This document shows positions 33,492 to 49,340 of a stretch of 64,000 nt of DNA, one piece after another. Made by a program: the position numbers and the translations under genes. Position 1 is the stretch's first letter. Every line of letters starts with the position of its first letter. Under the pieces are notes generated by a model. It was not told the DNA's origin, ran no database searches, and saw only the letters and a list, made by a program, of their open reading frames with translations. The stretch is from Candidatus Nanoarchaeia archaeon (GTDB taxonomy: Archaea; Nanobdellota; Nanobdellia; Woesearchaeales; DATDXC01), in NCBI GenBank assembly GCA_035289425.1, contig DATDXC010000032.1, forward strand, positions 22,550 to 86,549, written 5' to 3'.

Positions 33492-33638
33492 CGCCGCGGC
33501 TGAGATTTGAACTCAGATGTCCAGAGGACACAAGATATCTGCGGTACTGGTAGGTTCATAAGAACTTCTGTTCTTAGCAATCATACGCCTCAGATTGTTA
33601 CTTTGAGTTTGCGCAATACCAGATTATGCGACCGCGGC
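33492..33638 (-). tRNA. tRNA gene with canonical acceptor and T arms but a ~85-nt insertion (intron-containing or disrupted); anticodon unresolved
   Basis: Acceptor GCCGCGG/CCGCGGC with a G discriminator, and T-arm CTGAG-TTCAAAT-CTCAG. The D-arm is CGCA...TGCG. The body is ~147 nt, with a possible variable-arm hairpin TGTCC-TCT-GGACA. No clean anticodon stem could be placed. Confidence 0.5.
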
Positions 33639-34282
33639 ATTTGAGGGTACAAACCCTTGTTTGCGGAATAGCTGGTATTTATTTAAATGTTTCGAGTTTT
33701 TAGGTTGAACTTCTGCTACCCATTTATGGAGCATTGTGTTGCCTGCGACGCAAAGCTTTAGAGAATTTCGGTCAGACCAGATGTAGTTTCTGAAGTTCAT
33801 ATCGGTTAGGAGTTCTGATAGGTCCCTAATCATAGCATGTGACACTGATGCAAATTCAACTTTGGGATACCTATGTGGTTGACCGTTGAGGTTATCAAAC
33901 CGCAAGCACCCATCTGTATCAAAATATCCACGCACAAAGGCGAGTCTCTTTGAGAGACCTGCCTCCTTGATATAGGACGGGATAGTGACGGTATCTGTTT
34001 TTCTTCCTGGTTTAAATCCATATTCTTGAAAGAAGGAAGTTATATCTTTCTTAGATGTCTGTATGCAGTAGCAGCCATTCTTACCCCCACTTCTAAACTT
34101 GGGGACTAGTTTTAATTTGAATATTGACTCGAGTAAAGGCACAATATTTTGGTGGTAATACTCTTTTTCAGTAAGGCTCCCCTCAGCTCTCAGACTATGC
34201 TTCGGCTAGTTTTGTACAGAGTACCATCTCCAACATGAGCACCAATTAATTCTGCAATTTTTGGATTTATTGTTATACTCAT
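33624..34282 (-). pseudogene. LAGLIDADG homing endonuclease (double-motif) disrupted by a frameshift, or a sequencing error
   Basis: An N-terminal fragment runs from the ATG at 34282 to a TGA at ~34190 and carries motif 1 'LIGAHVGDGTL'. A C-terminal ORF at 33624..34142 in the -1 frame carries motif 2 'FVRGYFDTDGCL'. The stop codon TAA lies inside the downstream tRNA, at tRNA positions 13-15. Confidence 0.7.
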
Positions 34283-34413
34283 TTAAAATCACTGATTGTT
34301 ATTCTGATGATGCTATGTAATTGATTTGCTATCAGAAATGGAAAATCAAAATTTGGTTGCTGAGCCATTTTCTAAGTGATTTTAAAGGGAAGTAAATAAA
34401 AATAATCAGATTA

Positions 34414-34433
34414 CCAGGTTATGCGACCGCGGC
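34414..34433 (-). repeat. 20-nt direct repeat of the tRNA 5' end (GCCGCGGTCGCATAAcCTGG), distal copy
   Basis: 19 of 20 nt identical to positions 1-20 of the tRNA at 33619-33638. It is followed by a TTTAAA-type promoter-like element at ~34455-34470. Confidence 0.6.
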
Positions 34434-48349: not shown

Positions 48350-48384
48350 AGAACTGCAATTGAGTATCTGTATATAAAAAGGTT

Positions 48385-48409
48385 ATGCGCCGGCCGGGAT
48401 TCGAACCCG
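48385..48409 (-). repeat. partial duplicate of the tRNA-Gly 3' end (intron-less T-arm plus acceptor 3' strand)
   Basis: In tRNA orientation it reads 'CCGGG-TTCGAAT-CCCGG-CCGGCGC-A'. It is identical to the 3' part of the tRNA-Gly gene at 49209-49229 but lacks that gene's 29-nt T-arm insert. Confidence 0.6.
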
Positions 48410-48461
48410 GATAGCAAGTTTTAAATATTTTCCTTCTTTTTCTAATCCCACTCGTTGTACT

Positions 48462-49241
48462 ATGATTAAAAAAAGACTAAGTCTTTCGGAAAAGAATTAC
48501 ATCAGAGAGATGGTTCAATCCGGCCTCTCGTTGAAGAATATTGCAAACCGCACAGGAAAAAGCAAAACAACTGTTTACTACTACTTTAGAGACATAAGGG
48601 GTAGAACTATCCTGCCCATAACAATAAATGAGGAGAAAAGTGAGCTAGTGGGTGAGTTTTTAGGGATAGTTGCTGGTGATGGCTGCCTGAATAAAACTAA
48701 ACAGCACCATTATAGAGTCTATCTTTTCTTCAATAAGAAGGAGCACGCATATGTCAGAGAGCTGTATACTGCTCTTTTTTATGAGCTTTTCAAGAAGCAG
48801 CCTTCCCTATTTGACCGGAAAGAGAGGGATATATTTATCTTATATTTCTGCTCCAAAGAGATTTATTTTTTTGTCAAGAGGTATCTTACGTGGGATATGA
48901 CTACCAGAAAGAGCCATTCGGTGCACCTAAAATCAAGGAACCACACTACCCGATTTAAGATTGGTTTCTTAAGGGGGCTAATCGATAGTGATGGTTATTT
49001 GTCCAACGACAGAATTGTGTTCAGTACGAGTTCTATGAAATTGGCTGCTGATATTATGCAATTCCTAGATGAATTACATATCAGTTATGGTTTTCACATC
49101 TATAAAGAAAAGAGAGAAAACAGGGTGGATATGCAACACATCACCATCAAGAGAAGAGACCGGAACAAATTTTTGAAGGTCATAAAACCCCGCGAAAGAA
49201 AAAATATATGCGCCGGCCGGGATTCGAATTTCCGGACTTAA
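48462..49241 (+). CDS. LAGLIDADG homing endonuclease (double-motif) with N-terminal HTH
   Basis: Motif 1 'LGIVAGDGCL' and motif 2 'LRGLIDSDGYL', with an N-terminal HTH 'SLKNIANRTGKSKTTVYYYF'. Its last 11 codons are antisense to the 3' end of the tRNA-Gly gene. Confidence 0.8.
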   Translation: MIKKRLSLSEKNYIREMVQSGLSLKNIANRTGKSKTTVYYYFRDIRGRTILPITINEEKSELVGEFLGIVAGDGCLNKTKQHHYRVYLFFNKKEHAYVRELYTALFYELFKKQPSLFDRKERDIFILYFCSKEIYFFVKRYLTWDMTTRKSHSVHLKSRNHTTRFKIGFLRGLIDSDGYLSNDRIVFSTSSMKLAADIMQFLDELHISYGFHIYKEKRENRVDMQHITIKRRDRNKFLKVIKPRERKNICAGRDSNFRT

Positions 49242-49340
49242 GGAGAACCTTAAATCTCCCGGATAAACGGCTTGGAAGGCCATTGTCATTTACGGCAACT
49301 TTTACCCATGTAAAAGCTGTAGCCATTAGACCACCAGCGC
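49209..49340 (-). tRNA. tRNA-Gly (anticodon TCC) with two putative non-canonical introns (D-loop ~34 nt; T-arm 29 nt between positions 53/54)
   Basis: Acceptor GCGCTGG/CCGGCGC with an A discriminator, and anticodon arm ATGGC-CTTCCAA-GCCGT. T-stem 5' CCGGG is separated from TTCGAAT-CCCGG by a 29-nt insert containing a GGAGAACC...TCTCC hairpin. The D-stem GTCT/TGAC is separated by a 34-nt insert. Confidence 0.6.

Follow-up and report, generated by a model that had tools for sequence, protein, structure and literature searches.

A tRNA-Gly(UCC) gene in a Nanoarchaeia archaeon genome carries a probable free-standing LAGLIDADG homing endonuclease cassette with a replacement tRNA end

The window analyzed here, a stretch of 64,000 nucleotides from a Candidatus Nanoarchaeia archaeon contig (DATDXC010000032.1), contains a tRNA-Gly(UCC) gene with two introns, an intact HTH-LAGLIDADG gene that runs antisense into the tRNA 3' end, and, beyond the start of that gene, a displaced copy of the same tRNA end. 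A sequence-only reading had described the antisense arrangement, and the overlap between gene and tRNA amounts to 33 nt (49209-49241). The features of the locus are as follows.

49209..49340, minus strand: tRNA-Gly(UCC) gene, 132-nt pre-tRNA (read directly)
49340-49320, 49288-49258 and 49228-49209, minus strand: exons of tRNA-Gly(UCC)
49289..49319, minus strand: D-arm intron of 31 nt after position 21, similar to the bulge-helix-bulge (BHB) type
49229..49257, minus strand: T-arm intron of 29 nt at 53/54, relaxed BHB (HBh') type
49199..49204, minus strand: T6 run directly after the proximal tRNA 3' end, likely the tRNA terminator (read directly)
48462..49241, plus strand: intact HTH-LAGLIDADG homing endonuclease gene, 259 aa (Pfam HTH_38 and LAGLIDADG_3)
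48419..48427, plus strand: TATA-box-like TTTTAAATA, preceding the endonuclease ATG by about 39 nt (read directly)
48384..48413, minus strand: intron-less tRNA-Gly 3' end, displaced copy matching the spliced proximal sequence at 30/30 nt

Neither ARAGORN nor Rfam at the gathering score detects the unspliced tRNA-Gly gene; once the 31-nt and 29-nt inserts are removed, ARAGORN calls a tRNA-Gly(tcc). The fold of the pre-tRNA is an extended cloverleaf (-53.4 kcal/mol, z -4.6), and a tRNA-Gly(UCC) follows the same DHH gene in syntenic relatives. Because brute-force splicing with ARAGORN was too permissive, the boundaries of the D-arm intron were set by comparison with the intron-less relatives L001 and L077; the intron folds with a helix AUGGC/GCCGU, a 3-nt bulge split as UA/C, and a 9-bp inner hairpin. 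Covariation of the T-arm intron was computed over 29 loci against 500 shuffles and slid controls. In these loci 98.3% of cells are paired and 7 of 8 pairs show compensatory changes, a pairing level reached in none of the 500 shuffles, with slid controls at 55% or below. The 4-bp central helix joins exon positions 48-51 to intron positions -6 to -3 (99% of cells), pairing in the inner helix reaches 97%, and the two 3-nt splice-site bulges are split as GG/A and AA/U; since the outer helix is absent, the intron belongs to the relaxed type. By structure and covariation, the 29-nt insert is a BHB intron, and its removal in vivo is predicted. Among DPANN archaea, EndA enzymes with an L3 loop have been linked to disrupted tRNA genes (PMC5829648). 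Complementarity between the intron loop and the 3' trailer covaries in relatives and is absent from the intron of the window itself.

The protein of 259 aa matches Pfam HTH_38 (4.6e-8), LAGLIDADG_3 (8.7e-12), and Hom_end (1.6e-5). It carries two LAGLIDADG motifs, GIVAGDG (D73) and GLIDSDG (D177), each with the conserved acidic residue, and G72, D73, G74, D177, and G178 are invariant among 24 sequences. The AF2 model (pLDDT 88.6, residues 249-259 disordered) has the alpha-beta-beta-alpha-beta-beta-alpha double-domain fold, and the top Foldseek matches are I-DmoI (E 1e-10, TM 0.77 normalized to the target); WhiA, which also combines LAGLIDADG and HTH domains, is among the fold matches. A sequence search of the PDB returned nothing beyond a weak HTH match. 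Judged from its motifs and modeled fold, the protein is a member of the monomeric double-motif LAGLIDADG homing endonuclease family, with cleavage activity predicted, and the family comprises 188 clusters at E ≤ 1e-30.

The endonuclease stop codon lies inside the T-arm intron; the final 11 codons of the gene are antisense to the tRNA 3' end and intron, and the T6 run doubles as Lys/Asn codons of the C-terminus. Homologues conserve these K-N codons, which precede the tRNA junction. Their C-terminal tails run antisense through the tRNA acceptor in three different reading frames, and the model shows the tail as disordered; the overlap with the tRNA is therefore incidental to a fixed cassette boundary. 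At the other end of the gene, TTTTAAATA is the putative promoter of the cassette, and in L006 the same TTTAAATA-to-ATGATTAA arrangement adjoins the distal fragment.

The displaced copy spans the variable loop, T-arm, acceptor 3' strand, and discriminator. It consists of TAT, a 25-nt fragment, and TA, the fragment being CCGGGTTCGAATCCCGGCCGGCGCA on the minus strand at 48386-48410; the sequence reported for it earlier was correct, and its coordinates (48385-48409) were shifted by one position. The identification of the fragment as the tRNA-Gly 3' end without the 29-nt insert, flanks included, holds over all 30 nt at 48384-48413. With up to 3 mismatches allowed, CCGGGTTCGAATCCCGGCCGGCGCA occurs nowhere else in the window and in none of 100 shuffles, the displaced-fragment score is 22.5 against a null maximum of 10, and windows of this kind would share an exact 22-nt repeat by chance with a probability of about 1e-8. 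A repeat search returned the direct repeat pair 48376-48405 and 49199-49228 with a spacing of 823 nt, and the sole ORF between the repeats is the LAGLIDADG gene, with no integrase, which bears out the claim of a repeat of about 30 nt bracketing an element of about 800 bp with this single cargo. The distal fragment is followed by a T5 run and the TATA box of the next gene, as is the intact tRNA of the relative L077, which has an empty site. A group I or group II intron with an endonuclease ORF was considered and rejected, as an Rfam gathering scan of the whole window found only three tRNAs and no ribozyme core, and the ORF is antisense to the tRNA.

An empty site was sought in relatives, as the sequence-only reading had proposed, and occurs at the syntenic loci L077/L078. 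These share the Nre-DHH-tRNA order (DHH 68% identical) and have an intron-less tRNA-Gly without an endonuclease gene, directly followed by the TATA box of the next gene. This nearest empty site belongs to a distant relative, with 68% identity on the flanking protein. All assemblies of the species itself that reach the site are occupied, and no within-species empty site was found among contigs carrying the identical DHH protein. The distribution of the endonuclease gene is patchy, because none of 83 metagenomic tRNA-Gly(UCC) loci, each with at least 1 kb downstream, carries it; it is also absent from the three nearest syntenic relatives. Occupied and empty sites therefore exist at one position, as for a mobile element, without a within-species polymorphism among the contigs searched.

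Across the homologous loci, about 55 of the 64 that could be assessed adjoin a tRNA end, at a nearly fixed distance between the endonuclease end and the tRNA end. Endonuclease clades match tRNA identity and orientation: the antisense clades are tied to Gly-UCC, Gly-GCC, and Arg-GCG, and the same-strand clades to Ala and Gly-CCC. A displaced tRNA fragment is kept at about 12 of 66 loci, in both orientation classes, and most loci show none; as in the window, the target end is there duplicated with the native copy beyond the endonuclease gene. The spacing of the repeats is always about one endonuclease gene (814-1134 nt). The inserted and displaced ends are identical in the window and have diverged in L032, L011, L044, and L045; in L032 the inserted T-stem is GGGGG/CCCCC and the displaced one CCGGG/CCCGG, and in L045 the displaced 5' fragment retains the old promoter. 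The proposal that the genes are tied to tRNA ends is thus supported by this survey.

The 53/54 intron is present in 24 of 28 endonuclease-bearing tRNA-Gly genes versus 3 of 83 without the endonuclease (odds ratio 160, p 4e-17). Since four endonuclease-bearing tRNA-Gly genes (L012, L022, L028, and L029) have no 53/54 intron and the same-strand class has no systematic one, the intron is not a universal immunity device. At L166 the intron is present and the endonuclease gene is absent, with a 28-codon remnant of the endonuclease C-terminus kept.

A second arrangement in the window had been read as the same architecture, and the recurrence of tRNA-targeted loci stands, while this particular locus at 33.5-34.4 kb is of a mirror-image class with a different LAGLIDADG family. 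It comprises three features.

33492..33638, minus strand: multi-intron tRNA, most likely tRNA-Ser(GCU), with G73 (homologous loci L204/L206/L207)
33624..34283, minus strand: frameshifted LAGLIDADG_3 gene without HTH, on the same strand as the tRNA-Ser and upstream of it
34412..34433, minus strand: displaced 5' fragment (positions 1-21) of the tRNA-Ser, 21/22 identical (score 22, null maximum 10)

The tRNA is not recognized by Rfam, an Rfam E-value search was also empty, and brute-force splicing and comparison with relatives gave it no name. Its assignment as most likely tRNA-Ser(GCU) is suggested by the tRNA-Ser(GCU)-like genes at the matching position in L204, L206, and L207. Intact homologues of the LAGLIDADG gene encode 215-235 aa.

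We consider it likely that the tRNA-Gly locus represents a free-standing LAGLIDADG homing endonuclease cassette with a replacement tRNA end, lodged in the tRNA-Gly(UCC) gene, and that the replacement end is probably made cleavage-resistant by its intron; endonuclease cleavage and mobility of the cassette are what we infer. The cassette of about 823 bp would consist of a replacement 3' module and the endonuclease gene, with no other cargo, the module extending from the variable loop to the discriminator and being split at 53/54 by the 29-nt BHB intron. The endonuclease gene would have a TATA box of its own, with transcription running towards the tRNA. The cassette would occupy the T-arm site of an ancestral intron-less tRNA-Gly, whose 3' end, together with the terminator and the promoter of the neighboring gene, would have become a dead fragment beyond the endonuclease start. 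The acceptor stem of this tRNA-Gly may be a hybrid, as its U5-G68 wobble hints. The enzyme may cut intron-less tRNA-Gly genes in or near the T-arm, after which repair would copy the cassette, with the tRNA body on one side and the distal fragment plus flank on the other serving as homology arms. tRNA function would be retained because the cassette brings its own 3' end, from which the splicing endonuclease would remove the intron. The intron may confer self-immunity by breaking the recognition site, a role that T-stem substitutions may play in the intron-less cases. After fixation, the fragment and then the endonuclease gene would decay and leave the intron behind.

Because the distal copy is identical to the spliced proximal sequence (30/30), a target contained entirely in these 30 bp would be present in the genome as a self-target; hence either the recognition site reaches further 5', or the enzyme is inactive or under control. 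Moreover, canonical double-strand-break repair alone does not create the first duplication.

Several other readings of the locus were weighed. A virus or plasmid may have integrated into the tRNA-Gly 3' end by a tyrosine integrase and duplicated the att site, with later deletions removing all but a passenger LAGLIDADG gene from between attL and attR. In Archaea, tRNA 3' ends classically serve as att sites, and direct repeats of the tRNA end result from integration (PMC3293823); this model has been proposed for the Caldiarchaeum tRNA-Thr, and in the syntenic relative L079/L080 a 444-aa Phage_integrase gene sits right after the same tRNA-Gly. However, the 823 bp contain no integrase, and tblastn with the L079 integrase found no homologue in any of 69 loci (L001-L069). 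A scan of IMG/VR for a viral origin gave only one weak partial match. The near-fixed distance between endonuclease and tRNA with its clade-to-tRNA specificity, the constant one-gene spacing of the repeats, and the occurrence of 5' end duplications also argue against an integrase remnant, which we regard as unlikely. Equally improbable in our assessment is a domesticated DNA-binding protein that acts on the neighboring tRNA gene, for example as a WhiA-like regulator or splicing helper, with the repeats as old scars. The presence of WhiA among the fold matches, the conserved tRNA adjacency, and a gene that is intact and fixed in every assembly of the species extending to the site would fit such a role, whereas the invariant catalytic Asp in both motifs, the very patchy distribution, the frameshifted and remnant copies, and the endonuclease genes adjoining intron-less tRNAs argue against it.

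The sequence-only reading had offered a giant intron at 53/54 as an alternative, with the distal fragment as a functional 3' exon spliced in cis or trans over the antisense endonuclease gene. The distal fragment is indeed a perfect 3' exon followed by a T-run, and ARAGORN models L032 as a tRNA with an intron of roughly 900 nt. The proximal copy, however, includes an entire 3' exon, its BHB intron covaries and shows the canonical geometry of the bulges, and the T6 run follows it. The ..CUAUCCGGG before the distal exon cannot pair with exon UCCG to form a BHB helix, and in most relatives the proximal copies are intact but the distal ones are absent, truncated, or mutated. We reject this giant intron or split gene as very improbable. 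An assembly artefact or chimera, which might have produced a false duplication in metagenome-assembled sequence where short repeats can mis-join contigs, has even less to recommend it and was likewise rejected: the arrangement is not an artefact, because tRNA, gene, and fragment recur with 0-1 mismatch across the stretch compared in five independent assemblies (ENA, JGI, Logan), which stem from different samples and pipelines, and the same design exists in unrelated genomes. A sixth assembly (L074) is identical through the distal fragment and diverges just beyond, and a seventh contig (L075) ends inside the tRNA.

Paquin, Laforest and Lang are said to have described the mobile endonuclease ORFs (mORFs) of fungal mitochondria in 1994. 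These elements and an insertion in the tRNA-Thr gene of Caldiarchaeum are close analogues of the cassette, so that the initial impression of a system without described counterpart no longer stands. The mORFs occur in atp6 of Allomyces macrogynus and in atp6, atp9, cox2, and nad3 of Glomus (PMC3630166). In mORFs and in the present cassettes alike, a free-standing endonuclease gene moves together with a duplicate of one end of its target gene, the native end is replaced by the inserted one and remains downstream as a displaced duplicate, and the two ends can differ, as at L032. In contrast to the mORFs, which target protein genes and are fused in frame, the cassettes described here target tRNA genes, in the window that of a DPANN archaeon, replace either the 5' or the 3' end, usually carry a BHB intron in the replacement end, and have the endonuclease antisense to or upstream of the tRNA. 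In Caldiarchaeum subterraneum, a fragment of tRNA-Thr(GGU) lies 1.8 kb from an intact tRNA with a new non-canonical intron, and the insertion between them (clone JFF014_A09) contains a single 813-bp ORF of about 270 aa, adjacent to the tRNA and in the same orientation (Sugahara et al., 2012; PMC3293823). The authors interpreted this arrangement, which is very similar to the 33.5-34.4 kb locus of the window, as the gain of an intron and the scattering of fragments through a mobile element. They named the ORF a putative recombinase and ascribed the event to pNOB8-type integration, with no homing endonuclease recognized and no family-wide survey (PMC3293823). A full-text literature search, which had subscription journals outside its coverage, returned no paper linking LAGLIDADG genes to tRNA ends or fragments in Archaea.

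Collaborative or trans homing, in which a free-standing endonuclease cleaves an intron-less allele at the site where the intron inserts (cyanophage psbA; T4 mobE/I-TevIII; PMC2790892), resembles the cassette in that the endonuclease gene lies outside the intron, beside the intron-bearing gene, and that the host allele would be shielded by the intron, which would undergo co-conversion together with the endonuclease gene. It involves self-splicing group I introns in phage protein genes, unlike the protein-spliced BHB intron, cellular tRNA gene, and duplicated gene end found here. The archaeal enzymes I-DmoI, I-Tsp061I, and I-PorI are also linked to BHB introns of stable RNA genes, and I-DmoI, the best structural match, shares the monomeric double-motif fold; these enzymes are encoded in sense inside large rRNA introns, whereas the window enzyme is free-standing, has an extra N-terminal HTH, and is encoded outside the tRNA mini-intron. 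The att duplications of SSV1 and pNOB8 likewise flank inserted DNA with tRNA-end direct repeats and involve introns at mobile-element sites, but the cassette is a single endonuclease gene without an integrase, and 5' ends are also replaced.

Intron transposition and integrase-mediated integration have been proposed as the origin of non-canonical archaeal tRNA introns, tRNA fragments, and split tRNA genes, a question that goes back to the discovery of such genes. The tRNA-Gly locus suggests a testable origin for the introns and gene fragments and offers a concrete, assayable agent, namely hundreds of HTH-LAGLIDADG enzymes in clades each tied to one tRNA gene end, together with an empty site, fragments at various stages of decay, and an intron that tracks the endonuclease. 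Randau and Soll reportedly put forward in 2008 the idea that tRNA gene disruption protects against integration, and the hypothesis of introns as immunity against mobile elements now becomes testable. [quoted passage not shown] The enzymes also form a pool of compact nucleases whose predicted natural targets measure about 20 bp or longer and lie in conserved genes. Finally, "missing" tRNAs in DPANN genomes can be explained, because multi-intron tRNAs such as those of the window escape ARAGORN and default Rfam.

The tRNA-Gly(UCC) gene of the window is interrupted by two inserts and meets an endonuclease gene on the opposite strand, beyond whose start lies a displaced copy of the tRNA 3' end. A second arrangement, locus A, lies at 33.5-34.4 kb. 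The features are as follows:

49340..49209, minus strand: tRNA-Gly(UCC) gene with two inserts, by direct reading and ARAGORN
48462-49241, plus strand: endonuclease ORF of 259 aa (Pfam HTH_38 and LAGLIDADG_3)
48386-48410, minus strand: 25-nt displaced fragment of the tRNA-Gly 3' end, by sequence match
33492-33638, minus strand: 147-nt multi-intron tRNA of locus A, most likely tRNA-Ser(GCU)
33624-34283, minus strand: frameshifted LAGLIDADG_3 gene without HTH, upstream of the multi-intron tRNA
34412-34433, minus strand: displaced 22-nt 5' fragment of the locus A tRNA, beyond the endonuclease gene

The tRNA-Gly gene reads GCGCTGG-TG-GTC-TAATGGCTA[31 nt]TGAC-A-ATGGC-CTTCCAA-GCCGT-TTAT-CCGGG[29 nt]TTCGAAT-CCCGG-CCGGCGC-A, and ARAGORN calls it tRNA-Gly(tcc) once both inserts (31 and 29 nt) are taken out. 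Direct reading confirmed the sequence-only reading in that the endonuclease gene runs antisense into the tRNA 3' end by 33 nt, with its stop codon within the T-arm insert; the displaced fragment also stood, although the coordinates first assigned to it (48385-48409) were one base off. The 25-nt fragment is the sole match within the window, even at three mismatches (0 in 100 shuffles), and with its flanks forms a 30-nt stretch (48384-48413) identical to the spliced proximal sequence, at a spacing of 823 nt between the copies. Five independent assemblies (ENA, JGI, and Logan) carry the same arrangement with 0-1 mismatch across the compared stretch, a sixth (L074) is identical up to and including the distal fragment, and a seventh contig terminates within the tRNA; the arrangement is therefore not the assembly artefact considered earlier. 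The sixth assembly (ENA ERZ27254754) is a strain variant in which tRNA-Gly, endonuclease gene, and distal fragment are all identical to the window. Past the fragment (window 48351-48383) it lacks one nucleotide and, ~12 nt further on, loses all similarity to the window sequence; its downstream neighbour is therefore a different one.

The neighbouring genes Nre and DHH, together with database names, place the window in the DPANN archaea (Nanoarchaeia/Woesearchaeota), and the gene order Nre-DHH-tRNA-Gly(UCC) is conserved among relatives. The empty site sought in relatives was found in the nearest one, the syntenic contigs L077/L078 (DHH 68% identical), where tRNA-Gly has neither introns nor an endonuclease gene and the TATA box of the next gene lies directly 3' of its end (..GACGCATCGTTTATATAAAC). 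The same next-gene TATA context follows the distal fragment in the window (..GGCGCATAACCTTTTTATATAC). Because it shares the downstream context of an intact tRNA, the distal fragment is best read as the original tRNA 3' end, with ~823 bp inserted upstream of it. No occupied/empty polymorphism was found within the window's species among assemblies reaching the site. Two other syntenic relatives, L079/L080 (5029-6544) and L081/L082, have a different T-loop intron (59/60, 17 or 26 nt) in tRNA-Gly(UCC); in L079 a 444-aa tyrosine integrase gene directly follows this tRNA, so integrating elements make use of this tRNA arm as well.

A profile search returned 188 clusters (50% identity) of homologues at E ≤ 1e-30, a number that rises to 746 at E ≤ 1e-10, and 69 genomic loci (L001-L069), all DPANN, were compared. 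Close homologues (40-57% identical) run, with few exceptions, antisense into the tRNA-Gly(UCC) 3' end. Genes of distant homologues (26-39%) also end within ~10-40 nt of a tRNA, either antisense into its 3' end (Arg-GCG, Ser-GCU, Glu-CUC, and Gly-GCC) or on the same strand just before its 5' end (Ala-GGC/CGC, Gly-CCC, and Cys). By our own count, ~55 of the 64 assessable loci adjoin a tRNA end, which bears out the proposal of a recurring tRNA-targeted LAGLIDADG architecture, and endonuclease clades in a neighbour-joining tree correspond to tRNA identity and orientation. The acidic residues of both LAGLIDADG motifs are kept (D73 and D177, invariant in 24 sequences), and the confident AlphaFold model (pLDDT 88.6) best matches I-DmoI structures in the PDB (E 1e-10), with WhiA lower in the list. 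In the model, residues 249-259, whose codons lie in the antisense tRNA, are disordered, and homologues translate the antisense acceptor in three frames (tails ..CAGRDSN, ..NASAGI, and ..RRPGFE), so the overlap is a side effect of a fixed boundary and no functional extension.

The 29-nt insert is predicted to be a bulge-helix-bulge (BHB) intron. Among 29 loci aligned on the splice junctions, exon positions 48-51 and intron positions -6..-3 are paired in 99% of cells and the inner helix in 97%, and 7 of 8 pairs show compensatory changes (e.g., CCGG/CCGG, CUGG/CCAG, UCGG/CCGA, and CGCG/CGCG). None of 500 shuffles reached these pairing and covariation values, and pairing falls to 38-55% when the partner is slid by one column. 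Canonical geometry is seen in both bulges (G52 G53|A and A A|U54); the outer helix is absent, which points to the relaxed HBh' type thought to be processed by DPANN splicing endonucleases (PMC5829648). The sequence-only reading had offered as an alternative a giant 53/54 intron containing the endonuclease gene, with the distal fragment as exon 2, but a distal junction unable to form the BHB helix and a T6 run after the proximal 3' end both speak against this.

Introns at 53/54 of the AAACG..CGTTCGGAWA class have a central loop that is perfectly complementary over 6-9 nt to the 3' trailer (+2..+10 after the discriminator). This occurs in L001, L003, L006, L008-L011, L013-L018, and L020 and is absent from the window's intron (49229-49257). 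The sequences are locus-specific (GGGACTG/CAGTCCC, TGAAGGGT/ACCCTTCA, GAGGAGC/GCTCCTC, and others), with a mean longest complementary run of 5.65 nt between an intron and its own trailer versus 3.72 nt when introns are matched with the trailers of other loci. Candidate explanations are a pseudoknot in the pre-tRNA, a stem at the 3' end of the endonuclease mRNA, and a templated origin.

The 53/54 intron occurs in 24 of 28 endonuclease-bearing tRNA-Gly(UCC) genes. For comparison, 120 metagenomic tRNA-Gly(UCC) loci were chosen by anticodon-arm pattern; of the 83 whose downstream sequence was long enough, none carries the endonuclease gene and only 3 have a true 53/54 intron (odds ratio 160, p 4e-17). 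In one of these, L166, a remnant of 28 endonuclease C-terminal codons persists directly after the tRNA, which fits a cycle in which the endonuclease gene invades, decays, and is lost while the intron stays. Other T-loop inserts, after positions 58-60, are found in 23/83 (L088, L096, L131, L136, L151, L182, and others); some exceed 70 nt, are apparently structured, and may be either BHB introns of unusual length or introns resembling group I.

Displaced fragments were scored by local alignment of the tRNA-end region to the 450-nt stretch past the endonuclease start, with other windows of the same locus as the null (maximum ~9-12). Scores were 22.5 for the tRNA-Gly locus of the window, 22 for locus A, 19 for L006 and L011, 18.5 for L018, 18 for L015, 16 for L009, 14.5 for L044, and 14 for L010, with weaker scores at a few further loci. 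The distal copy of L006 measures 32 nt and, as in the window, lacks the intron that its proximal counterpart has; L032 combines an inserted GGGGG/CCCCC T-stem with a displaced one of CCGGG/CCCGG, the acceptor being the same in both; and in L045 the displaced 5' fragment retains the old promoter and differs at 5/24 positions. Such features appear to reflect an incoming end that replaced the native one and the decay of the latter. Extra tRNA debris suggests repeated or cross-tRNA invasions: a fragment beyond the endonuclease gene adjoining tRNA-Gly(CCC) in L044 (3908-3934) resembles the tRNA-Gly(UCC) 3' end, another 3' fragment follows tRNA-Ser at a distance of ~130 nt in L204, and in L036/L043 antisense pieces of a T-arm lie near the promoter, ahead of the endonuclease start.

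The arrangement is best explained as a free-standing cassette of a homing endonuclease carrying its own copy of the tRNA end, so that the interrupted gene would stay functional. By analogy with LAGLIDADG biology, fungal mitochondrial mobile endonuclease ORFs (mORFs), and collaborative homing, the enzyme would cut a T-arm lacking the intron, resistance of the carried end would come from its intron or from substitutions in the T-stem, and the distal fragment would act as the right-hand homology arm. Weak points are that the distal fragment is an intact possible self-target, that the intron rule has exceptions, and that the formation of the first duplication is left unexplained. Searches of freely available full texts turned up no paper that links LAGLIDADG genes to the ends of archaeal tRNA genes. 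The architecture, which the sequence-only reading did not recognise as a described system, has analogues: mechanistically the closest are the mORFs with a duplicated gene C-terminus (PMC3630166), and among archaeal descriptions the nearest concerns the tRNA-Thr locus of Caldiarchaeum, there ascribed to integration (PMC3293823). How non-canonical tRNA introns and tRNA fragments arise thereby becomes a question for the bench.

Locus A, taken in the sequence-only reading for a further instance of the same architecture, does combine a LAGLIDADG gene by a tRNA with a displaced fragment, but differs in design, with a 5' fragment and a second LAGLIDADG family without HTH whose intact members (215-235 aa) lie just before tRNA-Ser(GCU). 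It is the mirror image of the tRNA-Gly arrangement and not a copy of it, and the TATA box of its tRNA lies within the 3' coding region of the endonuclease gene. A motif, CCACTGGACA, sometimes doubled, occurs in both families ~10 nt before the TATA box and 50-250 nt upstream of the endonuclease start (L001, L002, L005, L007, L010, L013, L014, L018, L020, L038, L046, L047, L049, L050, L052, L053, L058, L062, L064, L065, L068, the locus A homologues L204 and L207, and others). It has 28 matches in 21.6 kb of upstream sequence versus 12 in 866 kb elsewhere, with none in the window, and may serve the cassettes as a common promoter or operator. The locus A tRNA was missed by ARAGORN and by Rfam at the gathering score and at E ≤ 1, and the unspliced tRNA-Gly by ARAGORN and by Rfam at the gathering score; multi-intron tRNA genes such as 49209-49340 and 33492-33638 can explain apparently missing tRNAs in DPANN annotations.
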